Of a DNA stretch of 64,000 nucleotides, positions 1-63,354 are shown piece by piece (the first letter of the stretch is position 1; each line of letters opens with the position of its first letter). The stretch is from a virus. The notes below the pieces were generated by a model, which was given only the letters and a program-made list of their open reading frames with translations, made no database searches and was not told the DNA's origin. Where the stretch lies: the IMG/VR virus record IMGVR_UViG_3300028815_000061, positions 7,032 through 71,031 of that record; one strand, 5' to 3'. Position numbers and translations under genes: made by a program.

Positions 1-84
1 ACTAGACCTAATCAAAGTAACTGGACGTCAACAGCATATGCCACACGTGTTGGAGGGCTTGGCCGGTCCAAAAGAAGGACTATC

Positions 85-1161: not shown

Positions 1162-2077
1162 TGCTAGTATCTTTGATGGGCACGGCGTAAAGGAGAATAG
1201 TGTGAGTCAACTTCTGGAGTTTCCTGGATGGGATGCTCCGTCCCAAAATTGGTCAAAGCTACCGCATGCTTTCATCGATCTAATATCGAGGATGAAAGAG
1301 AGCGAGCTAAAGGTAACCCTGTATATCCTCCGTCACACATGGGGATATGGTAATTACGGGGACTATCAATTCATGACAACGGATGAGATCATGAACGGCC
1401 GGTTCATGAAGGGTGGGAGTCGAATTGATTCTGGTACAGGCCTATCTAAGAACTCTGTTATCTCGGGAATTAGAGCAGGTATTGAACGTAAAACCCTGGA
1501 AGAGGTAGTAATAGATAAGGATCAATCAAGAATCCGTAAGGGTTATAGATTAAAAGCAAAACCAGAACAGGACCCGGGGTTCAAAATTTGCACCTCTGGG
1601 GTTCAAAATTTGAACATCGATCACAATAAAGATACCTATAAAGAAAAAGAAGATCCTCAGCCTTCGGCTGATGAGGGAGAGCAGAAACCAAAGAAAGATA
1701 GCAAGCCCAGTATCCTTGCTGTTTACAATTCCAGGATGGAGGACAAGTTTCATGAACTGACTAACTTGCCACTTCCAAAACGTATTACGGCTGCGGATCG
1801 CAAGGCGGCAGGAGCACGATGGAACAGGCCCTTATGGGAAATCTATGACATGTTCCGCCCGGATGAGGAGAGGTTAAACATTGAAGTCAAACGTGTATAC
1901 GAGGAAGAGACTCTTGACAATGCACTTGCCCTAATCGAGCTTGCCGTGAGCAGAATGAGGAACGAGAAACTAACAATGGATTCACCGGCAAGTATTATCA
2001 AAGTCGCTCGATCTATCTATGCAAACGAATTCGTCAATGCAGCAACGTCCAGCGACTTTTGGGAAAAGCATCTATGA
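1142..2077 (+). CDS. Phage replication initiator (lambda O-like N-terminal winged helix)
   Basis: NWSKLPHAFID..M..SELKVTLYILRHTWGY...TGLSKNSV; internal iterons; lies upstream of primase and helicase. Confidence 0.8.
   Translation: MTEKKASASIFDGHGVKENSVSQLLEFPGWDAPSQNWSKLPHAFIDLISRMKESELKVTLYILRHTWGYGNYGDYQFMTTDEIMNGRFMKGGSRIDSGTGLSKNSVISGIRAGIERKTLEEVVIDKDQSRIRKGYRLKAKPEQDPGFKICTSGVQNLNIDHNKDTYKEKEDPQPSADEGEQKPKKDSKPSILAVYNSRMEDKFHELTNLPLPKRITAADRKAAGARWNRPLWEIYDMFRPDEERLNIEVKRVYEEETLDNALALIELAVSRMRNEKLTMDSPASIIKVARSIYANEFVNAATSSDFWEKHL
1576..1655. repeat. Putative replication origin: two iterons plus A-rich tract
   Basis: GGGGTTCAAAATTTG at 1576-1590 and 1598-1612 (22-bp period), followed by an A-rich stretch, inside the initiator gene. 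Confidence 0.7.
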
Positions 2078-2373: not shown

Positions 2374-2387
2374 CAGGAGTGTGAGTC

Positions 2388-3431
2388 ATGAGAGACAGGC
2401 CTTTACCATCGGAGTTAGCTGCGGTATGGGGACATAATGCCGACCTTGCATACCGTGGTAATGATGAGTGGTCATCGGCTTGCCCACGCTGCAACCCGGC
2501 CGGGCGGGGAGGGAACGATCCGTCCGACCGGTTTCGCATGTTCAATCGCGACGGTCCACCTAGAGGCTGGTGCCGCTCATGTGATATCAAGCTGTTTGCC
2601 AACGCAGATCCCAGAAGGAAATACAGCGACGGGGAAATTGAACAGGCCAGGGCAAGCCATTACAAGTGGTTACAGGAAGAGAACAAGCGACTACGTTCCA
2701 AGATACGCTGGCTGAAAGAGCAAGACTTCTGGCGTCGATGGCATGAGGACATGGGCGAAGAAGCTAGGGAAATCTGGCACAAGGCCGGGATAAGTGACAC
2801 GCTAATCGAAGTTCACAAACTTGGTTACACGATCGATAGGTACGCGGCAAATGGTGGGGCCTTGTCTATTCCCTATATCCATTACGTGGATGGCTCGCTC
2901 GATCTGCAGACCATCCAGTTTAGATTACTGGTACCTCCAGACAAAGGAGACAAGTACAGGTTCTTCAAAGGCACAAAGGCCAACTGGTTTTACCCATGGC
3001 CACACGACACCATTAAAGATGTCGTCCTCGTTACAGAGGGTGCTAAGAAATCCATGGTGCTCTGGCAAACAATTGCCAATCTAAGCAAGTTTACCTATCG
3101 TGGGGTTGACATCACGGTCGTAGCCTCGCCAAGTAAATATGTGCCAGGTAGCATGCTAGAAGAGTTGGGCCAGGCGGAGCTAGTCATCTGGATGCTGGAC
3201 CCGGACGCCTACGATAGGCCGCAACCAGGCAAGGAAACGGTTATCGAGCGCAATGCCAGTATTGTCGGGGAAGAGAAATGTAGACACGTTAAAACAATGG
3301 GCAAGATCGACGACATGATCTTGAATAGTTCATATGGCATTGATGGACACTGGATACAAAGCGTCGTCGAACAGGCCGAGCCGGTCATACCTTATAACCC
3401 GAATCGTCGGCCGACAACCAGGTACTTGTAG
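2388..3431 (+). CDS. DNA primase (Zn ribbon + TOPRIM)
   Basis: CPRC...DRF...WCRSC zinc ribbon; TOPRIM VLVTEG and LDPD (DxD); SD AGGAG. Confidence 0.85.
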   Translation: MRDRPLPSELAAVWGHNADLAYRGNDEWSSACPRCNPAGRGGNDPSDRFRMFNRDGPPRGWCRSCDIKLFANADPRRKYSDGEIEQARASHYKWLQEENKRLRSKIRWLKEQDFWRRWHEDMGEEAREIWHKAGISDTLIEVHKLGYTIDRYAANGGALSIPYIHYVDGSLDLQTIQFRLLVPPDKGDKYRFFKGTKANWFYPWPHDTIKDVVLVTEGAKKSMVLWQTIANLSKFTYRGVDITVVASPSKYVPGSMLEELGQAELVIWMLDPDAYDRPQPGKETVIERNASIVGEEKCRHVKTMGKIDDMILNSSYGIDGHWIQSVVEQAEPVIPYNPNRRPTTRYL

Positions 3432-42559: not shown

Positions 42560-45098
42560 AGGATATAGCCTCTTGCTCGGGTTGATGCACAGCATCGTAC
42601 TCGTTTTGAAGATAGGCCATTAACTCTGCCTCATGTCCTACGCTTTTATCTCTCCTGGCCCCGTCAGTAAAGCTATATACCCATAATGGCATATCAACCC
42701 TGTGAAACGGGTATCCCTGCCATGCCAGGCGATACAGGTATAAGCAATCCTCCCATGTCTTTATCTCCTCATCAAATCCGCCAATAGCCTCATGCCACAT
42801 CTTCGGTAGCAGGATATTAACTCCTGACCACACATATGGCCGATCCCCATCTGGTCTGAGCATGGCACGTTCCCGGTCGAATGGACGGAAACTATAATCC
42901 ACGATAACGTGATCGCCTTCTTCCTTGACAACGTGTCCTTGCAGACGAGGTAGCATATTCTTACTCATCTTTGAGTAGTACTTGCTGTACACGATTGACT
43001 TTGTTTGCTTGCTTATTTCTGGATTCACGTAGGTTAAGAACTCTGGTCCATAACAGTCGTCTGCATCAAGGAATGTGACAAAATCGGCGCTGGCCATGCG
43101 CACACCAATGTTTCTTGCGTGGCCCGGTCCACCAGGCACTAGCTCGCCAGTCCAGTAGCTATGTGCGTATGCTTCAGCGTACCGCACAAATGGAAAGGCG
43201 TTTTGGTAATAGTCCATGATATCGTAATCAAAGTTGTAATCCCAAACAACAATCGCCTCCCAATTCCTGTACTCCTGTGCTTCAATGCTATGCAAGGCAG
43301 TTGCAAGGACAATCTCGTGACCCTTGCCGACTGGGATAATGATAGAGACCTTTGGTTCGTACGAGCGTACTGGATGCGACAGGTTCTTCGGTGTAGCAAC
43401 AGCAGCAAACGGGAATCTGTAATCCCGCGTATATGGTTGCCACGCTCGCCAATTAACTTCGGTGAAATCGCTTGCACCAGATACATGGCCTAATCCATGA
43501 GTATGTACCCACAAGTTATTTGGCGTTGGCTTCACCATCTGTGGTTTCCATCCATGCGCCAGCAATCTCAGATACAGGTTTGCATCTTCAGTGCCAGCAC
43601 CTCTCGGAGCGTAGCGAGCCATATACCCACCCGCCTCTATCAAGGCCTTGCGCCTGAACATCACGCACGCGGGAAACTGGTTGGCCAAACCCTCGATAAA
43701 TTGCTTGTTAACATCCATTGTTGGCCATGGCTTATGGGCTCGTAAACCCATTTCTTTTGCCAGACCAGGTGGTGCAAGATGCTCGCCGCCCTTCTGGTAA
43801 TCAATAACCTCGCTGCCAGAATAAGAAAAGCCAATCGTCTTATCACCCACGAGTGGTTTAAGGCAATCCTTCACAAAGTCAGGCTTGATCTGGTCGTCTC
43901 CATCAAGAACAACGACAAAGTTGCAATCCGTACGGTATATTCCGGCATTCCTGGCAAGAGCAACGTTTTGTAGGTCAACCCGCAAATATTCAATGCTCGA
44001 TATTGTCTTGGTGTACTTCTCGACAACGTCTTTCGTATTGTCGGTTGAGGAGTCATCAACAACGATAATGTGGTCGGGCATCCTTGTTTGAGCTAGTACA
44101 CTGTCGATAGCCTTTCCCACTACGTCGCCATAATTATGCGATGTTATAACCACGGCCACCGTGTCCAATTTGCCAGCCTGGTACAATTTATCCTTGTAGA
44201 CCACTTCATCGTACACGTTATGAATGATCGTGGCCAGCATGCTGATGCTGTATTTCCAGTCAAGTTCCTTCTTGGCCACCCACCTGGCGTTTTGCCCAAG
44301 GATGCTGCCATGCTTCAGGCAATACTTTATACCCTGTATCGCATCGTTTAGGTTGTGATCTCTGTAGATATAACCCGTTCGCCCGTGTTCCACGAAATCC
44401 TTAACCGCTCCAGCACTCGTGCTACATACAGGAACACCAGAGGCCAGGGCCTCAGCCGCAGCTATGCCCCAGGTCTCGCGATCGGGCATAAAGATCACAC
44501 CCGCTTCCTGGATATGGCGCTTCATCTCTTCAAATGGAACCGTGCCTCCATACGTAACGACGTTTGGCGGCGAATCCCTAGTCGCAAATGTAGTATAAAA
44601 CGTCGTGTGTGGCATGGCCCTGGCAACATCGTTAATCTGTCCAGGATCTAGGCCATCAGATGTACGATTCTTTGTGTATAGCACATAATCGCCACGCCTG
44701 TAATTGTGCTCCCACTCATTTGGGTTTATGCCATGCCCGACCACGTGCACATGCTTGTGTAAGTCGCGACGGTAAACATCGGCAACCCATCGCGACGGCG
44801 CGATTATAGTGTGAGCATTCACTGCAGCTTTAGCAAGATTCGCATTAACCCCATAAGCGTACTTGCCAAGTTTAATTTCCTCTGTCCACAGCAAGCCATG
44901 TGTGACATGTATATCTGCATCCAAGTTGGACACTATATGCCCTATCGAAAGATCGGCCGGTTCACCTGGAGCGACTAGGTCAATCCCATATTTTGGCAAA
45001 TGTTTAGACCAATTGATGACTACCTGAGCAATGCCAGAGTGCTCCTTCCCTCGCATATCATCAGCGTGTGGTGTCATTGATACTTTGACTCGACTCAT
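42549..45098 (-). CDS. Three-domain glycosyltransferase (GT4-like + two GT2-like)
   Basis: ETWGIAAAEALASGVPV (E-x7-E); VVDDSSTD, LDGDD and TED; SIIIP, LDADD and WED. Confidence 0.92.
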   Translation of the reverse strand: MSRVKVSMTPHADDMRGKEHSGIAQVVINWSKHLPKYGIDLVAPGEPADLSIGHIVSNLDADIHVTHGLLWTEEIKLGKYAYGVNANLAKAAVNAHTIIAPSRWVADVYRRDLHKHVHVVGHGINPNEWEHNYRRGDYVLYTKNRTSDGLDPGQINDVARAMPHTTFYTTFATRDSPPNVVTYGGTVPFEEMKRHIQEAGVIFMPDRETWGIAAAEALASGVPVCSTSAGAVKDFVEHGRTGYIYRDHNLNDAIQGIKYCLKHGSILGQNARWVAKKELDWKYSISMLATIIHNVYDEVVYKDKLYQAGKLDTVAVVITSHNYGDVVGKAIDSVLAQTRMPDHIIVVDDSSTDNTKDVVEKYTKTISSIEYLRVDLQNVALARNAGIYRTDCNFVVVLDGDDQIKPDFVKDCLKPLVGDKTIGFSYSGSEVIDYQKGGEHLAPPGLAKEMGLRAHKPWPTMDVNKQFIEGLANQFPACVMFRRKALIEAGGYMARYAPRGAGTEDANLYLRLLAHGWKPQMVKPTPNNLWVHTHGLGHVSGASDFTEVNWRAWQPYTRDYRFPFAAVATPKNLSHPVRSYEPKVSIIIPVGKGHEIVLATALHSIEAQEYRNWEAIVVWDYNFDYDIMDYYQNAFPFVRYAEAYAHSYWTGELVPGGPGHARNIGVRMASADFVTFLDADDCYGPEFLTYVNPEISKQTKSIVYSKYYSKMSKNMLPRLQGHVVKEEGDHVIVDYSFRPFDRERAMLRPDGDRPYVWSGVNILLPKMWHEAIGGFDEEIKTWEDCLYLYRLAWQGYPFHRVDMPLWVYSFTDGARRDKSVGHEAELMAYLQNEYDAVHQPEQEAISYAM

Positions 45099-45246
45099 TT
45101 ATTTCTCCAACGTTTATTACGTTTTGCTGGTTTCCACCTGGGAGGCCATCTACCCTCCTCCTTGGCCTTCATAATGCGCCATGCCCACCAAGCGTCCAGT
45201 TCCAACATTTCATTCTTGGTAAATCTAGGTCGACCAAATGACACGA

Positions 45247-45441
45247 TTAACCACCTCTTACCTTGGCCAGCCTGCTATAAAAGTCCTGGTCAAGGTCCTG
45301 TATCTTGTCAGCTAATTTCTTCTCAGTCCACTTCTCGCCAGCGCACTTCTCGTAGATGTCGCTTTTCTTTTGAGCGTACCAGTCGTAGATGTCGTCTAAT
45401 TGCTGGCTTTTCATATAGCACCTAGTAGTTTGAGTGCGCAC
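45247..45441 (-). CDS. Hypothetical protein
   Basis: Small packed ORF. Confidence 0.5.
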   Translation of the reverse strand: MRTQTTRCYMKSQQLDDIYDWYAQKKSDIYEKCAGEKWTEKKLADKIQDLDQDFYSRLAKVRGG

Positions 45442-45974
45442 AAAACAATTGCCGGACCAACTATCATCAACCAGATAATTCGCCTTCTTTGCTTCGGCAT
45501 GACCACGACCTTCCCAGCGTTGTCGATTGCACTATCGACAAAGTCAAGATATGCCTCAAATATAGGCATGAACGGATCCCCGATCTGATAGGCGTAACTG
45601 ATATTAGGCTCAGGTCGATCTGGCACCTTGCTTTCTGGGTACATGTAAGACGTGTTCAATCTATCAATTGCTTTTTCTTGGCCATATAATCTCAGCCTTT
45701 GTCTAAGTGCGTCCCGGCTCCTGGCCTGCAGCCTGTTATGCTCCTGAACAAGCATCGCGGCCTCGCTTGGATCTATGCTTCCATCACGCAGGCACGCCTG
45801 AACAAGCCTATCGAATCTCTCGGAAGCGCTTTTCGCTAGGTCTACAAATCTCCTGTCTCGCTCATCCAGAGAGTCCACAAGGTAACGACTCAGCGAAGGT
45901 ATTGGCTTCTCCTCCTCAAGAACAACCTCGGAAACATCAACACGACGCCTACTATTCTTCTTCATCAACCTCAT
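45411..45974 (-). CDS. Protein with C-terminal TM anchor
   Basis: RRRIIWLMIVGPAIVLCALKLLG. Confidence 0.65.
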   Translation of the reverse strand: MRLMKKNSRRRVDVSEVVLEEEKPIPSLSRYLVDSLDERDRRFVDLAKSASERFDRLVQACLRDGSIDPSEAAMLVQEHNRLQARSRDALRQRLRLYGQEKAIDRLNTSYMYPESKVPDRPEPNISYAYQIGDPFMPIFEAYLDFVDSAIDNAGKVVVMPKQRRRIIWLMIVGPAIVLCALKLLGAI

Positions 45975-46392
45975 TACCTGAGTCGAATATTGAGGCCCCA
46001 GATATCCTCGCCTGGATCATCGCCGAACTGGTCATAATGTCCCTTAACTCATCCTCGGTATACTTGCTCATATCAACATCTTCCTTGAGCAAGAAGATGC
46101 GATCCTTGTGAATATAGCCAACACTCGCCATTGCTTCCTCGTCAAGAACCTTGAGATCACCCCAGTTCTCGACACCAACAACAATGGTTCTGACATTAAA
46201 CCTGGCAAGGATTTGGTGAGCAGCCGTATTTATGAACCTACTAAACTCCTCTTCGGGCATGTTCTTTGGTTTCCTGTATGCCACAAGTGCCCTGTCAGGC
46301 AATGACAGCGTGCGACTTTTAACCTTTGGAAACCTGCCCTCTGGTGTTTTTGGTACCGGTTGAATACCAAGTGACGGCCTAGGATCGCCCAT
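45952..46392 (-). CDS. Hypothetical protein
   Basis: SD GGAGG; packed. Confidence 0.65.
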   Translation of the reverse strand: MGDPRPSLGIQPVPKTPEGRFPKVKSRTLSLPDRALVAYRKPKNMPEEEFSRFINTAAHQILARFNVRTIVVGVENWGDLKVLDEEAMASVGYIHKDRIFLLKEDVDMSKYTEDELRDIMTSSAMIQARISGASIFDSGNEVDEEE

Positions 46393-46951
46393 GCGTCATC
46401 CTCCGGTTGCCACTCGTGCGTTGAATCTGGTTACGCTGTATGCCAAGCTGACTGATAACATGTGGCCAGATAGCCAGAAGAACGCCAACAGTAGCACTTA
46501 GAAATAGCTCTGAACCAATCGTAATAAATGTGAGCGTGTAAGCTGCGCCGATCGCGATTGCTGGCGTAAACAAATGTGGCCCACTTCCATCCAACGGAAA
46601 CATCTGTCGACCAGAGCGGTCCTGAACATCGCTTACAAAGTCGATTGTGAAGAACAAGGCAACGATTGCTAGTGCCCAGTAGTTTTTCTTTGTATCCATC
46701 ATGAACAGGTACATGAAAAACACTTGGGCGACTTGCGGTATAAAGCCAATCACCCAGTAGGTAATGGGCCAGTTCCCGAACTCGACGCCAAATGCAATTT
46801 CTAGGGCCTCGAATCCATCACGAGACGACTTAGCATCCTCCATGAATAGGATTATGCCAGACAAGAAAAGAAATAGGGCAAGTCCAAACACATACATAAT
46901 GTACGGGCTGTCTTGCCACTTTACCCTAATTTGCTCGAATACGTTCGTCAT
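46379..46951 (-). CDS. Multi-pass membrane protein
   Basis: About 4-5 hydrophobic segments; SD GGAG. Confidence 0.75.
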   Translation of the reverse strand: MTNVFEQIRVKWQDSPYIMYVFGLALFLFLSGIILFMEDAKSSRDGFEALEIAFGVEFGNWPITYWVIGFIPQVAQVFFMYLFMMDTKKNYWALAIVALFFTIDFVSDVQDRSGRQMFPLDGSGPHLFTPAIAIGAAYTLTFITIGSELFLSATVGVLLAIWPHVISQLGIQRNQIQRTSGNRRMTHGRS

Positions 46952-47552
46952 ATTTCACTCCAGTGGTTTGAGTTAGAAAAGCCTTTAAGCGCTCCGTCAC
47001 AGCGTACTGGCTATTTCCGATGTCATCCACCAGGTTATGTGAAACCAGGTAATCAATGATTATATCCCCGCTTGTCGAAAATCTATCCGGTATGACACCA
47101 TAAGATTCTAATTGACGCTTGGATATCTTGTCCATGCCCTCCTCAATGGCGTGCGCTAGAGAAATTAGCTTCGATAGCACACTAACTTCTTCTGAAGCAG
47201 AAGGCGTCATGGGTTTGCCATCAGCGGTTACGCCAATAGGTGCGTAAGCGTTGCCCATGTCTGCGGGCACCTCGACGATAGCTCCGCGATCTTTTATGAT
47301 GCGCTTCATTTCGTCGACCGGATGTTCCTCGCCTGTCATCCAGTACGGCCGTTTCATGCGGCCGGACTCATATAGATACTGTTCGGCAACGTAGACGACA
47401 ACATAAGTAATCGCCCAAATAAAGACGCCAAGAACAATAGCACGGCCAAATTCAAGCCATGTCAAATCCCCATCAAGAAGAGAGGCAGCAAGCGCACTGG
47501 CCCATGCTGCAGCGCCTATCCTGAATGCTATTGGTGGTGCGTGCTCGGTCAT
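46926..47552 (-). CDS. 2-TM membrane protein with possible C-terminal winged helix
   Basis: N-terminal TMs; IIDYLVSHNLV....QYAVTE ending. Confidence 0.6.
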   Translation of the reverse strand: MTEHAPPIAFRIGAAAWASALAASLLDGDLTWLEFGRAIVLGVFIWAITYVVVYVAEQYLYESGRMKRPYWMTGEEHPVDEMKRIIKDRGAIVEVPADMGNAYAPIGVTADGKPMTPSASEEVSVLSKLISLAHAIEEGMDKISKRQLESYGVIPDRFSTSGDIIIDYLVSHNLVDDIGNSQYAVTERLKAFLTQTTGVKYDERIRAN

Positions 47553-47553
47553 T

Positions 47554-48411
47554 TTATAACCCTTTTTTCTGCCAGCTATCTCCCACGTGCATCCATTGTC
47601 CAAGATTAAGGCCAAACATAGGAATCACAACCCATGGCATAATGTTCCACTCTGGTTGTTCCCTTCTCATGGCCTTGTAATTCGCACACCATCTTACTTC
47701 TGTTTGGCCTAATTTCACACTCTGGTCATACATGCCGTAAACCCAGTGAAACCTCATGTGCTTGATATGTGGCCTATTTGAGGCCAGGTATAGCTCAGGC
47801 CCTTCCACGTCCAGGTACCAGTATGGTCCATAGTTAGCAGCCTTGAATTTGTAGTACTTGCCCAGATTGTACGCATCTTTTTCCTCGCCCATAAATAGGC
47901 GTATCCAACCTATGTTGAGTTCCTCTGTAAACAAGTCTCGTGCATAATCGGTGATGTCGAGATGGTCGATAAGGTGATGATCGTCGTCGAGTTGCATAAC
48001 CAACGGTGTTTCAACCTTACTGAGCAACATATTGAGATTAGCGCCAAGACCCCTACCAGGACCTTTATAGATGCGGATCTCGCCACGATCGCTTAACAGA
48101 TATTTTGGGTCAAAATCATCTCCGTCATTCCCAATGAATACGTGAACATCTGGTTCTCTATTACCTTGCTCGTCGAAGTACACGAGATTACTAAGCAGTA
48201 AATCAACTGTTTCGACAAGAATTTCAGGCCGATTGTACGTTGGTATGATAATTGTCAGATCCCTGCTTGTATTGCTTTGCACCAAAATGCCTCCTTTTGT
48301 CCTTTGGCACCCATAATGGATGCTCTGATAAAGACTCGTACTCAACCTCTTTCCAGTACGACAAGTAGTCACGAACGTATGTTTCCCAGTAGTCGTACTT
48401 AGCAGTAGCAA
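47554..48411 (-). CDS. GT2-like glycosyltransferase (start probably near 48282)
   Basis: IIIPTYNRP, NDG, GLGANLN, QLDDD. Confidence 0.88.
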   Translation of the reverse strand: MLLLSTTTGKHTFVTTCRTGKRLSTSLYQSIHYGCQRTKGGILVQSNTSRDLTIIIPTYNRPEILVETVDLLLSNLVYFDEQGNREPDVHVFIGNDGDDFDPKYLLSDRGEIRIYKGPGRGLGANLNMLLSKVETPLVMQLDDDHHLIDHLDITDYARDLFTEELNIGWIRLFMGEEKDAYNLGKYYKFKAANYGPYWYLDVEGPELYLASNRPHIKHMRFHWVYGMYDQSVKLGQTEVRWCANYKAMRREQPEWNIMPWVVIPMFGLNLGQWMHVGDSWQKKGL

Positions 48412-48796
48412 CCCACACAGCAGCTTCCGTCAGTATATGGGAATCAGGCAGCAAATTAACATAGTACTGTATCTCGCGCTCTGCCCAAATGTTCCATCCA
48501 ATCCTACTTTGACTGGCGATGATATCCTCTACATCACGCTTCATTAAGACAACGCAGCAATTCGGATCGCTAAAACGCAGCGCATCTTTTAAGATCCCAG
48601 GACCTTGCAAGATACAGGGTTGGCGCTCATCTGCTAAATCCCTGGCTTTTTCGCCGTCCCATACCTGCCATAACCCCTCATCAAGATGCGTGTATCCATC
48701 AAGATCGTGCTCTATCATCCTAGAGCAGATGACAGTGCCCGAACGTTGCGGGCCAGTAACTAGGATAATTGGCCAGGAAGATAAGTACTCAAACAC
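48224..48796 (-). CDS. Sulfotransferase-like P-loop protein
   Basis: ILVTGPQRSGT (5'-PSB loop), MKRDVEDIIAS (3'-PB R..S), VEYESL. Confidence 0.8.
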   Translation of the reverse strand: MFEYLSSWPIILVTGPQRSGTVICSRMIEHDLDGYTHLDEGLWQVWDGEKARDLADERQPCILQGPGILKDALRFSDPNCCVVLMKRDVEDIIASQSRIGWNIWAEREIQYYVNLLPDSHILTEAAVWVATAKYDYWETYVRDYLSYWKEVEYESLSEHPLWVPKDKRRHFGAKQYKQGSDNYHTNVQSA

Positions 48797-49364
48797 AGCT
48801 CAACCTCTTGAAAATCCGCATAGTTCCCACAGATCCTTGTTCTCTCCAGCAATTGCTGAAACTGGTATACCACTCTGATACAGCTTGGTTAACACCAGGA
48901 ACCAGGTCATGCACACGAGGCTCGCCAGCACTATTGTATGGACGGTGAAAATCGTAACAATCATGGAAGATAACATAGCCTCCAATGTCCACCAGGTGCG
49001 TGTAAGACGTATCGGCGATCACACCCTGGTACGTGTGATCTCCGTCGATAAACAAAACGTCTACAACCGGGTAAGCCCTTCCAAATAGCTCGAACAATTT
49101 TGAACTATCGCCAGTTATGAACTCAACACCTAGGCTGTCCGGTGCCTTTGAATTGTCCAGGTCCATCCCACAGATAATGCACGTAGGGTTTCCTTCTCTG
49201 AAGCAAACGAGTGATGCGCCATGCTCTGTACCTATATTCAAAATAACTCCTAAATTCCCCGCTGACTTAGCAATATGATGAAGGAACTCACGCTCCTCCG
49301 GCCTCAGAAATCCCTTGGCCGTCCTGTAATTCAATCCCACCATCCTTCCTCCACTTGCTTTCAA
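48789..49364 (-). CDS. Class I SAM-dependent methyltransferase (Methyltransf_24-like)
   Basis: NIGTEHGAS, GDS, LFIDGDHTYQGV..D, GGYVIFHD. Confidence 0.88.
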   Translation of the reverse strand: MKASGGRMVGLNYRTAKGFLRPEEREFLHHIAKSAGNLGVILNIGTEHGASLVCFREGNPTCIICGMDLDNSKAPDSLGVEFITGDSSKLFELFGRAYPVVDVLFIDGDHTYQGVIADTSYTHLVDIGGYVIFHDCYDFHRPYNSAGEPRVHDLVPGVNQAVSEWYTSFSNCWREQGSVGTMRIFKRLSCV

Positions 49365-49587
49365 GTTTTATTAGCTCATCACGACTTATCTTTAGCGCAA
49401 CAATCCCACCCACATTCGGATCAAAACGCGGATCAATCACAAAGTCGGCGGAGACATGCACTGTATTTAGGTACTCCTCCAAGGCATAGATAGTCAATAG
49501 GGCCATCGAGATGCCTCGCTCCTCTGCCTCTGCCTTAACGCGCGCGTGAAGTTCCTCGGGGATTCTTGCTAGTAAATTCTTTGTCAC
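49288..49587 (-). CDS. Arc/CopG-type ribbon-helix-helix regulator, probably leaderless (GTG)
   Basis: KNLLARIPEELHARVKAEAEERGISMALLTIYALEEYL; GTG lies 7 nt after the -10. Confidence 0.8.
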   Translation of the reverse strand: MTKNLLARIPEELHARVKAEAEERGISMALLTIYALEEYLNTVHVSADFVIDPRFDPNVGGIVALKISRDELIKLESKWRKDGGIELQDGQGISEAGGA

Positions 49588-49593
49588 GCCAAC

Positions 49594-49645
49594 ATGATAA
49601 CACATTGCAATCTGGCTTGCAATATGCAATCAAAAGTGTTATAGT
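49594..49645. promoter_or_regulatory. Back-to-back sigma70-type promoters sharing one palindromic -35
   Basis: TTGCAA 49617-49622; + strand 17 nt then TATAGT (49640-49645); - strand 17 nt then TATCAT (49599-49594); both have a TGn extension. Confidence 0.75.
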
Positions 49646-49650
49646 ACTTT

Positions 49651-49755
49651 CAGGTCCCTGTGACCTCATGACTCACACACACGGGGCAGTCGTCCCCAAA
49701 CGCTCTGCCTCGTGCACTTGCGCCCAGGCCCCCGGCCCGTATCCGGGGGCCTTAG
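49651..49755 (+). ncRNA. Candidate structured small RNA or leader
   Basis: Downstream of the + promoter; three hairpins (49652-49666, 49683-49697, 49726-49752). Confidence 0.45.
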
Positions 49756-49768
49756 CATATAAAGTCAG

Positions 49769-50014
49769 GTGACACCAATGATAATAGAACAATTGACGGT
49801 CGAGATAATACCTATTAAGGATGGGCCAAGCCTAGATCCAAACTATCTGAAGATCAGGGTGGGGACTCATGCCAGCGGAATGAGGTTTTACTACGAGGAT
49901 TACGTAAAGCCTAGCAGCTTCGTAAGTGAATTTGACGTCATGCTAGAGCGCGCAGCCAAGGAAATCAAAAAGATGATCCGCGAGTACAAGGGAAAAGAAA
50001 AAGACTCCCCGTAG
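49769..50014 (+). CDS. Hypothetical protein
   Basis: 81-aa ORF with AGGTGA before ATG 49778, convergent with the capsid gene. Confidence 0.6.
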   Translation: MTPMIIEQLTVEIIPIKDGPSLDPNYLKIRVGTHASGMRFYYEDYVKPSSFVSEFDVMLERAAKEIKKMIREYKGKEKDSP

Positions 50015-50023
50015 GGAGCCTTT
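49993..50023 (-). terminator. Intrinsic terminator after capsid gene
   Basis: AAAGGCTCCC-TACG-GGGAGTCTTT followed by TTCTTTT. Confidence 0.85.
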
Positions 50024-50044
50024 CTCGGAAACATTGCGTGACTC

Positions 50045-51001
50045 TTATAGCCAGGGTGCGTTCTGCACAGGAACTGCAGTCGTCCTTTCGGACACACCAC
50101 CATCGACCCAGTAGTCACTCGCAGGATCAGGATCGCGGAGCGGTATATTGCGTGAATACTTAATGTCCTGGATTTTTCCAGCCAAGTGCGGCGTGCGAAG
50201 AACAACGCGCGGATCGGTCTCTGCTCGCAGCTTGAAGCAAGTATACACAGTTTTCCAACTCCACAAGAACCGGCCAGCATCCGTATACCACGTAGCCATG
50301 CCGGGTACCAGGTTAGATTGAGGAACACCCAGTTTATGATCCAGATACTCCCAATAGAGCACTGGCAAGTTGCCAACAATGGACAATGGCAGGAAGTAAA
50401 CGCTAGAAGCGAATTCGTTAACTGCCAATCCAGTGCCGGACTGATTGTTCTCTTCGACGATACCTGTGTCCAACACAACGTTGTACCTCTTTCCATTCAG
50501 GTCGAGGTAAAGGCCAGCGCGCATAGAATCGCGATCGCGCACGTTTTCACGCGCATCAAGGATGACACGATGTTCGCTACCGGCAAGTGTTGCGTAGTCA
50601 GGCTGCGTGTTGTACTGAATCGGCCACATGGACGATATAGCACGCCACGCCATCGGACGCATAACAATCACATGAGAAACTGGGTCTACGCCGGTATCCA
50701 TGGCCAGGTTATCCAAGTAGTCTGCGACTTCTTCCATCGCTCCTACAAGGTCTGCCCCACCATCTACCGCCTGATAACCAAAGTCCCAAATGGTGCTGTC
50801 GGCCGACGGCATCGGAGCGTTATTCTCAGCATCCGTGTAGCCTGTAGCAACCTGACTATCAATACCAGGGAATTCGACATAGCCTCTACCGGCCGTGTCG
50901 TTAGCACCGGATCCGTCGCCAGCCCACAGGAGTTTGGCGAGCTTGCGCTCGAACCGAACACCCATGGTAATCATTTCGGCCTTTGTCACCATGTCCAGCA
51001 A
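50045..51001 (-). CDS. Major capsid protein, C-terminal part (frameshifted)
   Basis: ERKLAKLLWAGDG....EFPGI and IVMRP HK97-fold-like segments; no SD; follows protease/scaffold. Confidence 0.75.
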   Translation of the reverse strand: MLDMVTKAEMITMGVRFERKLAKLLWAGDGSGANDTAGRGYVEFPGIDSQVATGYTDAENNAPMPSADSTIWDFGYQAVDGGADLVGAMEEVADYLDNLAMDTGVDPVSHVIVMRPMAWRAISSMWPIQYNTQPDYATLAGSEHRVILDARENVRDRDSMRAGLYLDLNGKRYNVVLDTGIVEENNQSGTGLAVNEFASSVYFLPLSIVGNLPVLYWEYLDHKLGVPQSNLVPGMATWYTDAGRFLWSWKTVYTCFKLRAETDPRVVLRTPHLAGKIQDIKYSRNIPLRDPDPASDYWVDGGVSERTTAVPVQNAPWL

Positions 51002-53329: not shown

Positions 53330-54869
53330 CTTCTTGTGCTTCCATTGTCATTTTTTGATATTGGCCTCTTAGCCACTCCAGCGCTGCCAGGGCCTCGCTT
53401 GCCCGGCGCTTCTTGGCCACACTATTACTCATCATTATCCTATAACATTCGGCCATCTGACCATGAATCGCCGCAATGACTGTAGCCGGATCATTTTGCT
53501 CGTACAGAAGGGGTTCTGGTATATCGCCGAATCTCAGTAATTTGGCAATCACCTTGTCGTCTGAGTAGAACAATGTCGCTATTGGCGATCCATCCTCCAA
53601 GAAACCGTCAGCTAATTGCTGGCGTATAAACTCCTCTCTGGAGATTTCGTTATTCTCCATCATAATCCTACGCTGCGCGGCCGCATCAATGATCTCGTAT
53701 TCAGATGTGCGAGCTACTGAGCGCGATCTGATATCACTGATGTTAGCTTGCATCATTTCTTGCTCATCGTCTTGCTCGTAAAACACAGGCTTGATAAATG
53801 GTGGGCACAACTTAAATTCCATTTGCTCTTGCAAATCGGCAATGAAGTCGGCGGGCAAGCGCCCACGTGATTGCATGTTGCTGATCTGATCGCTGGCACG
53901 GCTCCCGGAAACCGGCCAGATATCCTGGATTTTCAATCCCCAGGCATACGCAATCGCGTACATTGCCATCAACGTGCCTGTCTCTTCGTCGAATGGATCG
54001 AAGTTATTCAAGTCATGTGGTGTAACGCCAACCGCCTGCCCGCCTATGTAAACATTCATGCCAAAGTGTTCGAGACCAAGATTATCTTGCAAGGTGTTTG
54101 CTGCCATGAAAGCGGAGATCATTTCCTGCGCAGTAATTCCGTCGCCAACGAATAGCTTTGTGCCCGGCCGTCTACCCATCTTCTCCAGCTTATAGAGAAT
54201 CTGCCCGCTTAACACTTCACCAAGCAAATGGCTCCTGGACACGCTTGATAAGCCAACACCATTTCTACGAGTAAGTCCCATGGTCATCTGAGACATGTAA
54301 ATAACACGGCTAAAATGCAGTTTGTAACGCTTTCCATCATCTGGATGTATGTACCCAACGGGGAATTCCAGGACCCCTGTCCTTCTGCAGCGCATGGATT
54401 CGAGATGCCTGACACCCCACGGCATTCCCATGATCGGGCCATCCTCTGGCCCCTCGCCCATTATCTCCATAAATCCTCCATTATCTGTCACAAGATAATC
54501 TAGGATAAAACGCTTCATAGCCGTGCGAAGGCCCTCGCCACCTTCAGATAAACCACGCACCATCATCTCAAAGGTCTCTGCGCGATCTACTTGGGAGGTG
54601 ACGTTTCTGTCTCGGGCGACAAATTGTAGGGGAATGTTAGCTAGTTTCGTAAGTGCGGTATAAGCCAGGCCAGACAAATGGTTTGACCCGATCATCATCT
54701 GGTAAAGGCGCTTGTCTCTCGACGGACTCCACCAAGGCGGTAAAGAGTCTCCTGTATCTACAAGAGCAATCTCTATTGGATTGCCAACGTCATAAAGACG
54801 TCGGCCGTTTTTACTAAAGTATTTGCTCTGTACCTTTTCCAGATTGTCCAAATATACTGCTGTAGTCAT
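53253..54869 (-). CDS. Portal protein
   Basis: 538 aa after terminase; DYLVTDNGGFMEI, GVGLSSV and IAYAWGL segments typical of portals. Confidence 0.85.
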   Translation of the reverse strand: MTTAVYLDNLEKVQSKYFSKNGRRLYDVGNPIEIALVDTGDSLPPWWSPSRDKRLYQMMIGSNHLSGLAYTALTKLANIPLQFVARDRNVTSQVDRAETFEMMVRGLSEGGEGLRTAMKRFILDYLVTDNGGFMEIMGEGPEDGPIMGMPWGVRHLESMRCRRTGVLEFPVGYIHPDDGKRYKLHFSRVIYMSQMTMGLTRRNGVGLSSVSRSHLLGEVLSGQILYKLEKMGRRPGTKLFVGDGITAQEMISAFMAANTLQDNLGLEHFGMNVYIGGQAVGVTPHDLNNFDPFDEETGTLMAMYAIAYAWGLKIQDIWPVSGSRASDQISNMQSRGRLPADFIADLQEQMEFKLCPPFIKPVFYEQDDEQEMMQANISDIRSRSVARTSEYEIIDAAAQRRIMMENNEISREEFIRQQLADGFLEDGSPIATLFYSDDKVIAKLLRFGDIPEPLLYEQNDPATVIAAIHGQMAECYRIMMSNSVAKKRRASEALAALEWLRGQYQKMTMEAQEDESDEEPTEEERPDQESSEETIPEA

Positions 54870-56295
54870 GGCCTGATTTCCTTAGAAATTCCTGTATCAC
54901 CTTGTCTGATTTCGCTTGAGCTTCAGCCATGACCCTGCGTACTGTTTCCTGGATCTCCTCCATGTCCACGCCCGGTGCCCTGATATCCACCGGTAATGGT
55001 TCACCGTCTGAGATGTATCGGGTAAGATATCGCAAACCATCGAGCCCATGATTAAACGCATCAATTGGCACATTCGGTTTTGTAATATCGTAAACCCAGC
55101 TTCCAAATTCCCATCTCAATTGCTTGCACCTTGGATGTACAATGAGTTTGCGAACTCCATTGGTATCCGCGCCGACCCAGTTGCGGAGTTCGTCAATACC
55201 TTCCTGTATCTTGACCCGGTATGCTGTCCCATTAAAACCGAAACCTTTCAAGTAATTACCTAACGTGGGTGAAGATACATCATGTAAAACATACTCTGGC
55301 GCTGGATAACCTTTCTGATTACACATTCTAATCACCTGGAGTATGTGTGGTTGATATAGTAACTTAACGGCATAGTGCTCGTCAAAAACTGCTAGTTGAC
55401 CGTTCTGTCGTTTCTGCGCCATGACGAATGCGCGGGGACTCGACTTAGCACTAAAGTATCCTGTCTTTGTATCTTGCTCGCCCGCGTAGCCATCGTCGAC
55501 AACCCACACGACTGGCCCACCACCCGGAATATAATCAGCGCTCGGGGTGACATTCCCGGTCCTTGGATCAGGCGATGTAATCTTGTTATACCTGTCCTCC
55601 CAACTATCAATAACAAGACCAACACCGTCAGTCCACTGGCCATCCCACATTCTCGCGCGCGTGATACCACGTTTCCTACTCATTCTCTGCGTGTACTTTT
55701 CCCGATCGATATGAGGATTCATGGTCCAGTCAGAGTAATAGTACGCAGCCTCACCACCAAGAATCAATCGCACGTTTATCCAGTGCATCCTAGTATCTGG
55801 ATTGCATGATAATATAAATTGCTCCCAGTCAGCAGCAGTGCCTCTGATACGTGTATCAGCTAGATCGTAATCTTCTTCCTCAAACTCCGTGGCCTCCTCG
55901 AACCATACCCCGTCTGCACTACCCTTCATGCCAATAGACTTCCAGCCCTCCCTTTCCTTCTTGCCGTGCATACCCTTAAACAACAGCTCAGAAACCTGGC
56001 CATTAGGATGTTCGTACACCACGCGATCCGCCCTTGTATGAAACCAGCAACGAGGCTCGTGCTTGATATGAATGACGTCATCAAGTAACAATGGTATAGT
56101 GGATTGGTCCATGTCACTGCGAACTTTACGGGCAACAACCCAGGTAGCACCCGCGTATTTCAAAAGGAACGCATGCACCTTGTTAGCCGCCAGGTTAGAC
56201 TTTCCCCCACCCGGTTTGCCAGACAACAGCATAACCGGGTTACGATCCAGGAATGGTGCCCATTGCCAATCAGTAGCCTCAAACGGTAGAATCAT
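54814..56295 (-). CDS. terL: Terminase large subunit (PBSX/Terminase_3-like)
   Basis: GKPGGGKS Walker A, WFEEATE Walker B, SCNP coupling motif, HGLDGLRY nuclease motif. Confidence 0.93.
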   Translation of the reverse strand: MILPFEATDWQWAPFLDRNPVMLLSGKPGGGKSNLAANKVHAFLLKYAGATWVVARKVRSDMDQSTIPLLLDDVIHIKHEPRCWFHTRADRVVYEHPNGQVSELLFKGMHGKKEREGWKSIGMKGSADGVWFEEATEFEEEDYDLADTRIRGTAADWEQFILSCNPDTRMHWINVRLILGGEAAYYYSDWTMNPHIDREKYTQRMSRKRGITRARMWDGQWTDGVGLVIDSWEDRYNKITSPDPRTGNVTPSADYIPGGGPVVWVVDDGYAGEQDTKTGYFSAKSSPRAFVMAQKRQNGQLAVFDEHYAVKLLYQPHILQVIRMCNQKGYPAPEYVLHDVSSPTLGNYLKGFGFNGTAYRVKIQEGIDELRNWVGADTNGVRKLIVHPRCKQLRWEFGSWVYDITKPNVPIDAFNHGLDGLRYLTRYISDGEPLPVDIRAPGVDMEEIQETVRRVMAEAQAKSDKVIQEFLRKSGHDYSSIFGQSGKGTEQIL

Positions 56296-56616: not shown

Positions 56617-56847
56617 CAGTTTCGACAACAGGAAGAGGGTGAACAGTGTCATAAAGAACATCGTAAACGCGATGATCCTGTACGAATAAACACGCTGCTT
56701 GCGCAGAAACTCTTTGTTTATCTCCTCCTGCTTTTTCAAGACTAACTCCATAACCCTCTTTTCTGAGTGCATGATCTCACTTATGAACATGTCGCGCACC
56801 TCGTTATCGAGTTCAACTGTCACTTTCATGTCCGGCATTGTCGCCAT
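56611..56847 (-). CDS. Small protein with C-terminal TM
   Basis: IIAFTMFFMTLFTLFLL. Confidence 0.6.
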   Translation of the reverse strand: MATMPDMKVTVELDNEVRDMFISEIMHSEKRVMELVLKKQEEINKEFLRKQRVYSYRIIAFTMFFMTLFTLFLLSKLL

Positions 56848-57529
56848 TTTGTCCCTCTTCTAAATACAAAACCTGGCCGTCAATGATCTCGACCGGCCGT
56901 CCATCCTTCATAATCCTACCATCAATCACCTGGACTGACGGGTCATCCCACATCATTGGCGAAACATTACCATACATCTTGTAGGTAACTTCCTTTTCTT
57001 CATGCACGTCAATCCCGATCTGGTACTTTGTCGTATACATGCCGTGAAGTTTCGCCCGCTTATCCCAACAATCGAGGACAACACGCAGAAACTTCTCATC
57101 ACCGACCTGGCCCTTAATCAGCTTCTCGACTGACTCTGTTGCAAGGATCCGGTCAACGACACTCCCGGTCTTTGGATCGTAGATATCAATGAGCTTCTGC
57201 ACTTCCCTAACCTGTTCGGCCGGATCTTTCGACCGCTCCCACGCGGCCCAGGCCTCGACCTCGACCAGGCGTAGGCGCTCCTCTTGCGCCTGGATATCTG
57301 CGCCTGTTGGCGTCAAGGCCTGTTCATTCCAGACCTCGATATTAGTTTGGTAATCCCGGCGTACAGTTTCGGCCGATAGCGTATAGGGCACGCCATGCCT
57401 ATTGTTTAACTCATTGGCTATCTGTGCAAAAGATAATCCCTTGAGATGGTATTCGGCTACGAGGGCACGATCTCTCGCACGCTCGTGATCATCCCTCTTT
57501 CCCCCGCCCTTTATCTTTCTGGTCGACAT
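56813..57529 (-). CDS. terS: Terminase small subunit
   Basis: N-terminal HTH (GLSFAQIANEL...SAETVRRD); GD.KFL.......RAKLHG; upstream of terL. Confidence 0.75.
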   Translation of the reverse strand: MSTRKIKGGGKRDDHERARDRALVAEYHLKGLSFAQIANELNNRHGVPYTLSAETVRRDYQTNIEVWNEQALTPTGADIQAQEERLRLVEVEAWAAWERSKDPAEQVREVQKLIDIYDPKTGSVVDRILATESVEKLIKGQVGDEKFLRVVLDCWDKRAKLHGMYTTKYQIGIDVHEEKEVTYKMYGNVSPMMWDDPSVQVIDGRIMKDGRPVEIIDGQVLYLEEGQNGDNAGHESDS

Positions 57530-59480: not shown

Positions 59481-59545
59481 GTCCCTACGTGTCCATCACC
59501 GAAGAAAATAGTTTTCCTCGTTTTCCTCGTTTTCTTCGTTTTCCA

Positions 59546-59564: not shown

Positions 59565-59656
59565 CCTGGTCCAGGCCAGTTTTTCGCCAGGCCCCCCGTG
59601 TGTGTGGAGAGGTGGACGATACAATGCCAGGAATTAGAACACATGTTCATGGGTCC

Positions 59657-59709
59657 CACCCCCATATATAGGGGGTAGATGGAAGGCACCCCCCACATAT
59701 AGGGTAGAT
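59657..59709. repeat. Imperfect tandem repeats CACCCCC..ATATAGGG..TAGAT at the divergence point
   Basis: Copies at 59657-59680 and 59687-59709; the first is internally palindromic. Confidence 0.65.
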
Positions 59710-60601: not shown

Positions 60602-60733
60602 CACACGCGCCCACACGCATAGCAAGAGAGGTGAAATTGTAAGGACGACGAAACGCGCGGGTCTGGAGAAAGAGCCGCCCGCGTGTAGGGTGCCCGCCAG
60701 AGAGGTGCCCCTGATGAGTCATGAGGTGAACAG

Positions 60734-61168: not shown

Positions 61169-61355
61169 GCGCACGGGTACCCGGCATCACCCGGCCCGGT
61201 GGTGCCAGGTGCCCGCGTGCAGCGCGGCGTGTGTGCGTAGGGCGGGACGGTCCCCGACCTCCAACCGCCCACGGGCACAAGGTTTACCGATAGCACCGAC
61301 GTACCATGTACGCGGGTGCATAGCAGCGCCTATACTGGGCGCAAGGAGTAAAGTC

Positions 61356-61535
61356 ATGTTTCGCAGGACCAACAACAAGAACAAGCGCGGGTACGTACGT
61401 GACCAGGGCAACACGGACACCACGACCACGTACGCGAACACCCCACGATCCCGGCGCAACGTCAACACGAGTGTGAACAAGAAGCACGGGCGCTATCCGT
61501 CCGGGTGGTATTCGACTGGTTGCGAGGAGGAGTAA
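61356..61535 (+). CDS. Small basic protein
   Basis: SD AAGGAG. Confidence 0.55.
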   Translation: MFRRTNNKNKRGYVRDQGNTDTTTTYANTPRSRRNVNTSVNKKHGRYPSGWYSTGCEEE

Positions 61536-61625
61536 CCAGGCCAGACATCGGGGGCATTACGTGCGGGCGTAGTGCCTCCGGGTTTGTATTGGTTATACGG
61601 GCGCAAGCCCAAAGGAGATAGAGTC

Positions 61626-61811
61626 ATGAGTTTGTTAATCGCAGGTATCGTACTGGCAGGCGCGTTATTCGCGGTTGCCTGTTGGCTGTGGATTGCGGCC
61701 AACATGGGCGAGGCCGAGTTACCAGAGCGCGACGGCCTAGCCACTAATCGGAGCGGGAACGCGCATCCCGACTATTCTCCCCGGCGTCACAAGCTGATGC
61801 GGGACTGGTAG
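61626..61811 (+). CDS. Small single-TM protein
   Basis: SD AAGGAG; hydrophobic N-terminus. Confidence 0.65.
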   Translation: MSLLIAGIVLAGALFAVACWLWIAANMGEAELPERDGLATNRSGNAHPDYSPRRHKLMRDW

Positions 61812-61818
61812 GTGTAAC

Positions 61819-62217: not shown

Positions 62218-62220
62218 GTC

Positions 62221-62370: not shown

Positions 62371-62398
62371 CGGGTGCCCGCCCGCAAAGGAGTGAGTC

Positions 62399-62848
62399 AT
62401 GGGCATTGTATTTACACTCGACTACGACGGGGATATGTACCTCAATGGGCGCATGGTCCTGCCGTGGGACGTGTGGGACGTGCCTGAGTGGAACTGGACG
62501 TACGAGTACGACTGGTTTGGCACGGTGCATGAAGGCGATGAGGACCCCGTGTACCCCACGTACCACGAGCAGAAGAACAAGCGCATCGAATACACCGGGC
62601 GATGCTCTTGCGAACACTGCCAGCGTTACTATCACCACACCGATCACGGGTTCCGCCAGCGTGGTCCCGCTCAGGTGTGGGAGATGCACGGGCATAGGCG
62701 CGAGAGCTACGGCCCATGCCGTGCGCGCCTGGTCGGTGCATTTAACTGCTGGAAACAACACCGGCATTATCAGGCGCATGGCCGGGTACGCATTCCTAAG
62801 CGGGTTGACCCTGTTGACCTACTGCATGGCATGTATCCGCTGCGGTAG
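62399..62848 (+). CDS. Hypothetical early protein
   Basis: SD AAGGAG. Confidence 0.6.
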   Translation: MGIVFTLDYDGDMYLNGRMVLPWDVWDVPEWNWTYEYDWFGTVHEGDEDPVYPTYHEQKNKRIEYTGRCSCEHCQRYYHHTDHGFRQRGPAQVWEMHGHRRESYGPCRARLVGAFNCWKQHRHYQAHGRVRIPKRVDPVDLLHGMYPLR

Positions 62849-62976
62849 CCAGGAGCCAGGGGCAGGACTATGCGGGCGCGGTCCTGCCTCCCCTCCTGCC
62901 TATGAGCAGGTTTATCGTCCACGTGTGGTGACCGGGACGACCACCACACATATCTCCGCGCATGCGGAAAGGAGTC

Positions 62977-63354
62977 ATGATGTCCGATCAAATCACCTAT
63001 GTACCCGCCAACGTAGTCCAGAAAAATCCTGCACTCGTTGGCCTCCTGCAAGAGCAGGGCTACACCGTCGTCATCGACGAGCCGAACGGCCAGAACGGGC
63101 GCGGCCAACAGGTTACACCTGTGCCCGAGACGAAGGCCGAAGGCTGGACCAATGTCGCCGGGTATCCGTGCAAGAGCAGGTTCACGGCCTACACCAGCAG
63201 CTTGAATATCGTCAAGCACCTGAATGGCCGGTGCAAGTGCGCTAGTGGGCAACCCGATGAGTGCCCCGCCGCTTCACGCTATGGGTACACACAAGAGCAG
63301 CTTGGTTCCGACACCGAGATTCAGGTACCCGACCACCTGAAAAAGCCTGCCTAA
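62977..63354 (+). CDS. Hypothetical early protein with Cys/His cluster
   Basis: SD AAGGAG. Confidence 0.7.
   Translation: MMSDQITYVPANVVQKNPALVGLLQEQGYTVVIDEPNGQNGRGQQVTPVPETKAEGWTNVAGYPCKSRFTAYTSSLNIVKHLNGRCKCASGQPDECPAASRYGYTQEQLGSDTEIQVPDHLKKPA

Follow-up and report, generated by a model that had tools for sequence, protein, structure and literature searches.

A structured leader beside an RHH regulator gene in an uncultured phage, and its complementarity to early-gene start regions

Could the 5' leader of one small phage gene also act as an antisense regulator of many others? The question is raised by positions 49651-49755 of the analysed window, which comprises 64,000 nucleotides (nt), bases 7032-71031, of the 71,031-nt virus record IMGVR_UViG_3300028815_000061; the record represents an uncultured phage, and the DNA runs that contain the window are marine sediment and estuary metagenomes. 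A preliminary description, from which the gene labels "early" and "late" are also taken, had singled out this locus as the most striking place in the 64 kb, and had proposed a discrete small RNA (sRNA) of about 100 nt that silences early and replication genes through an address shared by their start codons. A promoter match, a fold and a coding gene were found at this position, and no terminator-like site within the leader; the anatomy is fairly firmly that of a promoter-proximal, structured leader of a small orphan gene, flanked by the gene for a ribbon-helix-helix (RHH) regulator. As to function, the reading favoured here, with less than even confidence, is that of an ordinary structured leader acting in cis, whose mirroring of early-gene starts would be coincidental.

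Promoters, leader and downstream gene

Promoters were sought with a scan for the sigma-70-type consensus, and the predicted features of the locus are collected in Table 1. A good promoter, TTGCAA-17-TGtTATAGT with an extended -10 (49617-49645), lies directly upstream of the stretch, which makes plausible the previously postulated rightward RNA carrying the segment complementary to start regions (the seed, 49663-49678, + strand ACCTCATGACTCACAC); the phage has two more intergenic promoters of this type, likewise with a TG-extended -10. A leftward promoter, TTGCAA-17-TATCAT, also TG-extended, agrees with the consensus at 9 of 12 positions. Together they form a mirror-image divergent pair (49594-49645) next to the RHH gene, built on one palindromic -35 from whose centre both -10 boxes are equidistant; since the same -35 serves both promoters, a single polymerase should fit at a time, and the arrangement looks like a compact either/or transcription switch. 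Both promoters are spanned by an operator-like inverted repeat with arms at 49595-49610 and 49617-49632, to which the RHH protein may bind. The divergent gene carries an RHH domain of the Arc/MetJ/CopG, HicB C-terminal type: it matches the HicB-family RHH entry PF05534 in Pfam (E 4e-6, 27.1 bits against a cut-off of 21 bits) and an Arc-like repressor in PHROG, and its coding score, counted from GTG 49587, is 0.27 per codon.

The fold of the predicted leader has a z-score of -4.2, and none of 200 shuffles was equally stable. When the 105-nt form is folded, two linkers remain unpaired (49667-49679 and 49715-49721); the seed, earlier described as lying mostly between two hairpins, does occupy the largest unpaired stretch, with 13 of its 16 bases unpaired and its ACC inside the first stem. 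The scan called no terminator-like site between 49652 and 49778; the hairpin at 49726-49752 lacks a U tract and was not called as a terminator, and the terminators called elsewhere in this phage carry T runs. Just 26 nt after this last leader hairpin begins a gene for a protein of 78 amino acids (aa), whose coding score of 0.27 per codon equals that of the RHH gene (the median of the called genes is 0.20). Its product has two full-length small homologues, P0005 and P0004, with 42% and 35% identity, among the 1.8 billion representatives searched with HMMER. No Pfam or PHROG family was found for it, and a word-indexed protein search returned only the protein itself. Its AF2 model, three strands and a helix at pLDDT 79.5, had no PDB match at E <= 0.001 (best E 0.2), and its Atlas look-alikes all stayed below 0.9.

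The stretch thus combines an upstream promoter, no terminator ahead of the open reading frame (ORF), and a real ORF with a Shine-Dalgarno sequence (SD), the features of a 5' leader of a coding mRNA. Of the features of a stand-alone sRNA gene, it has a promoter of its own (TTGCAA-17-TATAGT with TG); it lacks an intrinsic terminator of stem and U tract, and it is not non-coding, the 78-aa gene being on the same transcript. Because a terminator is missing and a coding gene follows, the 105-nt stretch is regarded as a message leader and not as a separately terminated sRNA gene, and the discrete sRNA gene of the preliminary description was not upheld. Rfam returned no family for the whole window at gathering scores; over 49500-50100 with E up to 10 there was no + strand match and only weak - strand ones, the best being ctRNA_p42d (29.7 bits against a 50-bit cut-off), which falls on the terminator that closes the cassette on the - strand.

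If this is an ordinary leader, the host-type promoter would initiate a rightward RNA near 49652, a start deduced from the promoter position, and the RNA would pass three hairpins into the 78-aa gene (49778-50014). It would probably end at the hairpin at 49997-50026, which on the + strand has only a weak tail (TTTCTCGG) and is not called as a site by the scan. The RHH gene would be transcribed leftward from the mirror-image promoter on the same palindromic -35, and the RHH protein would probably set the balance of the two. The hairpin at the 5' end and the GC hairpin could make the message more stable or adjust how well it is translated; terminal stem-loops stabilise messages in structured leaders such as that of ompA, and the present leader resembles that type in having a hairpin at the 5' end and stable internal hairpins ahead of the SD. 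The complementarity of the linkers to early-gene starts would then be a coincidence, with no action in trans; ordinary structured leaders are not known for multi-site complementarity to the starts of other genes.

A different cis-acting function is unlikely: ACCUCAUGACU could serve as an anti-SD element, controlling translation of the 78-aa gene by pairing with AGUCAGGU (49763-49770) of the same leader, in which case the likeness to other start regions would simply follow from its anti-SD nature. Minimum-energy folds of 49640-49790 and 49653-49800 do pair 49660-49673 with 49763-49773, at probabilities up to 0.85, and the start region of the 78-aa gene (AGTCAGGTGA) resembles that of the gene at 60734. 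Yet this pairing appears in two of four fold contexts, the SD pairing elsewhere with 49715-49721 or locally; the accessibility of the SD is unremarkable (rank 25 of 104 genes), and the duplex energy with the leader's own start region is weak, at -13.3 kcal/mol before opening costs.

Least probable among the readings is that a small ORF starts here, either one of 44 aa on the - strand from ATG 49669 or an upstream ORF of 34 aa on the + strand (49668-49772). Both ATGs lie within the palindrome TCATGA, and the stop of the upstream ORF overlaps the SD (AGGTGA) of the 78-aa gene; but the coding scores, -0.09 and 0.005 per codon, compare with 0.27 for real neighbours, neither ATG has an SD, and the - strand ORF crosses both promoters and has no Pfam or PHROG match. 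The start of a small - strand ORF, offered beforehand as one alternative, is without a coding signal.

Table 1. Predicted features of the locus and start regions complementary to it; net energies are predicted values that include the opening energies of both partners
Feature	Position	Strand	Basis or net energy
-10 hexamer TATCAT with TG, leftward promoter of RHH gene	49594..49599	-	consensus scan
Palindromic -35 TTGCAA common to both divergent promoters	49617..49622	both	consensus scan
Extended -10 TGtTATAGT, rightward promoter	49637..49645	+	consensus scan
Operator-like inverted repeat, 16-nt arms, 81% complementary, TTGCAAT words	49595..49632	both	repeat search
RHH regulator gene; start GTG 49587 or ATG 49605	49288..49605	-	Pfam, PHROG
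Predicted 5' leader, 126 nt; start ~49652 inferred from promoter position	49652..49777	+	promoter scan, fold
5'-terminal hairpin AGGUC-CCUGU-GACCU	49652..49666	+	fold
Start-region complement: seed 49663-49678 with unpaired linker 1 (49667-49679)	49663..49679	+	fold, matches
Hairpin 2, contains CGCTCTG	49680..49714	+	fold
Linker 2, CTTGCGCC(C) complementary to GGCGCAAG	49715..49725	+	block search
GC-only 10-bp hairpin, then TAGCATATAAAG, without U tract	49726..49752	+	fold
SD AGGTGA and 78-aa gene, ATG 49778	49767..50014	+	coding score, homologues
Hairpin closing the cassette; canonical terminator with T run on - strand	49997..50026	both	scan (- strand call)
Primase start region, ATG 2388, 14-nt exact complement	2379..2392	+	-19.5 kcal/mol
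SD region of gene 60734, 13-nt exact complement	60715..60727	+	-7.8 kcal/mol
Start of 61-aa membrane-type ORF 61626, 10-nt complement	61621..61630	+	-15.2 kcal/mol
Start of gene 62399, 10-nt complement	62392..62401	+	-10.1 kcal/mol
Start of gene 62977, 9-nt complement	62972..62980	+	-7.8 kcal/mol
Start GTG 1202 of 291-aa gene, 10-nt complement	1200..1209	+	-11.1 kcal/mol
Start region of gene 61356: 11-nt complement to linker 2, and AGTCATG against linker 1	61338..61358	+	-11.2 kcal/mol
Gene at -3529, left of window, 10-nt complement	-3529	+	-13.8 kcal/mol

Complementarity to start regions

The exact matches on which the proposed regulon had been built were confirmed by alignment: 49665-49678 is complementary over 14 nt to the primase start (2379-2392), the reverse complement of the whole seed differing from 2379-2394 only by mismatches in the last two bases, and 49663-49675 is complementary over 13 nt to the SD region of the gene at 60734 (60715-60727), where the net energy is only modest because the site is structured. 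Among the shorter matches to starts, those at 61626 (10 nt), 62399 (10 nt) and 62977 (9 nt) hold, whereas 63938 shares only TCATGAG (7 nt); AGTCATG does precede 61356 and 62221. In all, the locus has complements of at least 9 nt to nine start regions. Linker 2 is complementary to GGCGCAAG, a word that precedes 61356, 61626 and a third gene, at -4956, outside the window on its left; the match runs in the correct antiparallel order.

It is possible, if doubtful, that the RHH-switched leader doubles as a multi-target antisense RNA that shuts off an early/replication regulon. Such a leader-borne regulator might block ribosome binding at + strand early and replication starts, conceivably as part of the mRNA or as a fragment arising from processing or from partial termination at the GC hairpin. 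Its candidate targets, reached through linker 1 and perhaps linker 2, would be primase, 61626, 61356, 62399, 1202 and -3529, and its timing could be set by the RHH-controlled promoter. The address tentatively proposed for primase and a few small early genes has GAGTCATG at its core, preceded by a GT run or followed by AG, and in some cases GGGCGCAAG further upstream.

Several results weigh against a mere coincidence, and thereby against the ordinary leader favoured here. Six start regions reach -10 to -19.5 kcal/mol, all of them on the + strand and all over the start codon, and the complementary blocks fall in the unpaired linker 1, in linker 2 and in the loop of hairpin 3. The similarity takes the form of short perfect blocks without extended homology to the primase or early-gene regions; the lack of similarity beyond the perfect cores argues against a decayed duplication, and to judge from the sequence such blocks would suit selection for pairing better. 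When 14,186 windows of 105 nt from both strands were ranked by exact matches to 105 called start regions, the locus came first, with complements of at least 10 nt to seven start regions and no other locus having more than four; no place in the genome is a better antisense match to start regions. With energies corrected for accessibility, one of 90 shuffles was equally extreme in the minimum, the top-5 mean and the count at or below -10 kcal/mol; among 895 genomic controls (sampled 30-mers placed in the same scaffold), the minimum was reached by one, the top-5 mean by none and the count at or below -10 kcal/mol by two. All of this speaks for antisense action in trans, as do the exact complements of 9-14 nt at eight start regions (six of at least 10 nt among the genes first called, with 61626 and 62977 in addition), the seed left unpaired between hairpins in the 105-nt form, the specificity of the address for + strand starts, and the additional matches of 61356 and 61626 to linker 2 in the correct antiparallel order; the more lenient count, at or below -8 kcal/mol, was reached by 23 of the 895 genomic controls.

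Other results make a trans-acting leader doubtful. No terminator delimits a discrete RNA, and in longer folds part of the seed pairs with the 3' portion of the leader itself. Nor is one long match remarkable by itself: eight other loci have an exact complement of 13-14 nt to some start region, two of them of 14 nt. By plain duplex energy (49652-49685 against the start regions), the locus is no more than mildly unusual: 4 of 200 dinucleotide shuffles and 12 of 380 genomic 34-mers had a minimum as extreme, and the number of strong targets was reached by 42 of 200 shuffles and 68 of 380 genomic controls, which is not significant; the contrast with controls sharpens when opening energies are included. 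Overall, the significance is about 0.001-0.01 per window compared, before correction for a genome-wide search. The word matched by linker 2 is common across the genome: the 8-mer GGCGCAAG has 10 occurrences where 2.0 are expected, and these are spread over both strands, most of them within genes (7202, 10889, 23265, 28491, 34359, 43647, 49717, 57283, 61338 and 61600). Because of this five-fold excess, linker 2 was given little weight, and a bipartite argument from linkers 1 and 2 together, which had been considered, is weakened by it.

The shared start-codon address itself, as described beforehand, is real. GAGTCATG occurs seven times against 2.5 expected, a count reached by none of 100 shuffles; of these copies, four include the start codon of a + strand gene and one more falls within the start region of 60734. 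AGTC occupies positions -4 to -1 in 6 of 51 + strand genes and in 0 of 54 - strand genes, and no other 4-mer at these positions exceeds two on the + strand. Six + strand copies of AGTCATG fall within 2.3 kb (60716-62979), and another site lies at 2383-2390. Since the targets share words, complementarity to one start region brings others along; in its letters, the - strand of the leader resembles an early-type start region minus the SD. A coincidence is made easier by the palindrome TCATGA, the CA run and the over-representation of GAGTCATG-type words at + strand starts. Most small + strand genes at 60.7-63.6 kb also have a short GC-rich hairpin directly upstream of the SD (61329-61345, 62371-62386, 62957-62968, 63572-63586 and 60687-60710); these hairpins may be processing or stability elements.

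On another reading, the - strand carries a relic without present function: an early-gene boundary module (hairpin, GGGCGCAAG, AGTCATGAG) that recombination left behind in inverted form and that has since decayed. This origin is quite improbable. Three colinear blocks of 8, 9 and 10 nt are in common with the region upstream of 61626, and the cassette sits within a segment wholly different from the nearest relative; but no alignment extends past the perfect cores, the - strand ATG has no SD and its ORF no coding signal, and the best colinear-block score (23, with 61626) was reached by 46 of 3000 controls.

Even less probable is a DNA site, at which a phage or host protein would bind TGAGTCA/TGACTCA or the tandem TGACCTCA TGACTCA. 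The tandem word is located just downstream of the inferred start at ~49652 (+9 to +24), and TGAGTCA/TGACTCA also form the stem arms of a hairpin at 63373 and 63398, as had been stated in advance. TGASTCA, however, has 11 occurrences where 9.0 are expected, and 34 of 100 shuffles contain at least as many, so that the case for TGAGTCA as a DNA-binding site did not hold up; moreover, the enriched form always contains ATG and is located at gene starts, and therefore points to RNA or translation and not to DNA binding. The hairpin in question (63371-63406) follows the gene 62977-63354, has 11-bp arms (GTGAGTCAGGC...GCCTGACTCAC) and no T run, and has GTGAGTCA in common with the start-region word.

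Strain comparison and genome setting

Searches brought up no informative relatives of the phage. Megablast and blastn searches of GenBank phages gave no match, and the 78-aa and RHH proteins were not found in viral contigs. The phage was met in two other assemblies, both with at least 99% identity and without any change over 48318-50061; the one metagenome locus retrieved (L006) is this same phage. None of the 10 runs listed as containing the stretch is recorded as RNA, and the contigs of four DNA runs contain only near-identical strains over the leader. In one of the two assemblies, a sister strain with 99% identity, 59716-61139 (1422 nt, holding the 60734 target) is replaced by 1512 other nt, 63600-63935 is deleted (334 nt, most of the gene 63600-63941), and the AGTC before 62221 has lost one base, at 62219; leader and seed are unchanged despite these changes in target regions. 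Targets lost or altered opposite a constant seed tell against antisense action in trans, and weigh, if only as a weak point, against a tightly co-adapted regulon. The same strain has several small indels at the end of the gene 61819-62217 (62181-62219), and its small + strand genes show mosaic turnover.

Beyond these strains, TerL relatives reach only 40% identity, and in the nearest other phage at this distance the cassette and the start-codon address are both absent. In the complete relative G001, the 78-aa gene is absent, GAGTCATG does not occur anywhere, and the equivalent segment has - strand genes only; this genome is too distant to say anything on the address. The cassette sits in a variable segment of the - strand gene block: 45098-50045, between a large glycosyltransferase gene and a 315-aa gene, is wholly different from the nearest relative (L007, 10136-13661) and contains small ORFs, a family-2 glycosyltransferase, a methyltransferase-like gene, the RHH gene and the 78-aa gene.

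The virus record has no end repeats and an estimated completeness of 86%. Its + strand gene block runs from ~59.4 kb to the end of the record and from the record start to window position 10047, with small ORFs, primase (PHROG match phrog_47, E 4e-9) and other proteins without assignment; the - strand block extends from ~59.2 kb down to 10097 and includes TerL (54814-56295). Neither an integrase nor a resolvase turned up in the 71 kb of the record, at its completeness of 86%, so a lysogenic setting is not supported. Ten + strand early/replication genes had no Pfam or PHROG family, and Pfam gave matches in 2 of 20 other flanking and replication-block proteins. A PcfJ-like Pfam match was found at window 1-894 (33.3 bits against a 25-bit cut-off), two Pfam membrane-family matches at 46379-46951 were both sub-threshold, and the PHROG label "Rnase E" on 56813-57529 has no support from Pfam. 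The divergence region between the two gene blocks (59511-59544 and 59655-59712) contains GTTTTCCTC repeated 3.8 times in tandem, and a word resembling CCCCC(A)CATATAGGG(GG)TAGAT is present there twice; ~500 GC-rich nt (59740-60260) without a called gene follow.

Two extended -10 promoters lie on the - strand (52985-52880 and 41950-41845), where TTGACG or TTGAAT is followed by TGCTATAGT or TGCTATAAT. At both sites the 18-nt word CGCTCTGACAGGGCCTAG begins 12-13 nt after the promoter and opens an intrinsic terminator with a T run; the terminator at 41.9 kb directly precedes the SD of a gene. A promoter followed immediately by a terminator is found in late operons that need an antiterminator, as in PR'-tR' and Q of phage lambda, and the - strand pairs recall this late layout. 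The preliminary description had linked CGCTCTG, which is indeed present in the leader at 49701-49707, to the late-promoter motif; the heptamer occurs 10 times in the window against ~7.8 expected, which is chance level, and it shares only 7 nt with the 18-nt late-type motif, at a different distance from the promoter.

Known regulators and biological meaning

As outlined in passages of PMC12197685, the c4 RNA of the immI region of P1 and P7 is a small structured, promoter-proximal RNA upstream of a small gene in the same transcript, and it blocks translation by pairing around a ribosome binding site; the same passages name the sar of P22 immI as a small regulatory RNA, transcribed opposite its target ant and fully complementary to it. 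Like c4, the promoter-proximal structured RNA described here lies ahead of a small ORF and shows complementarity to regions of ribosome binding; the Rfam model of c4 does not match the leader at the gathering score. Unlike sar, it is the sense leader of its own gene, with complements that are short and in trans. Whereas the operon regulated by c4 is its own (icd/ant), and c4 is excised from the transcript, the best complements of the present leader are 11-47 kb away, in other transcription units. The layout of P22 immI, with the RHH repressors Mnt and Arc and a divergent promoter pair, is paralleled here by an RHH regulator and divergent promoters among late genes together with a candidate regulatory RNA; in contrast to P22, the 78-aa protein has no Pfam, PHROG or PDB match that would suggest an antirepressor.

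The CI RNA of P4 has several complementary sites in early transcripts, and by pairing with them it silences the operon for replication (primase); it does so by premature transcription termination, and its sites lie in the same leader region. The likeness is that of one RNA with several complementary early-gene sites, including primase, although the sites considered here are the start codons of genes that lie scattered. In function, the regulon first proposed comes closest to that of RegA of T4, which recognises a loosely shared element over many early start codons and shuts off their translation; RegA is a protein, and the agent here would be an RNA.

If the complementarity turns out to be coincidental, the locus teaches caution, since an over-represented start-region word together with a short palindrome can yield a striking multi-target mirror by chance. 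If, on the other hand, trans action by the leader is real, an RNA would be doing the work of T4 RegA, and the principle of P1 c4 and P4 CI would extend to many genes in trans; phages could then time the shut-off of an early/replication gene set with one RNA aimed at a shared start-codon word, and such regulators could hide in ordinary mRNA leaders, where sRNA gene finders do not look. Either way, mirror-image promoters on one -35 beside an RHH gene would provide a compact either/or switch layout that is directly testable.

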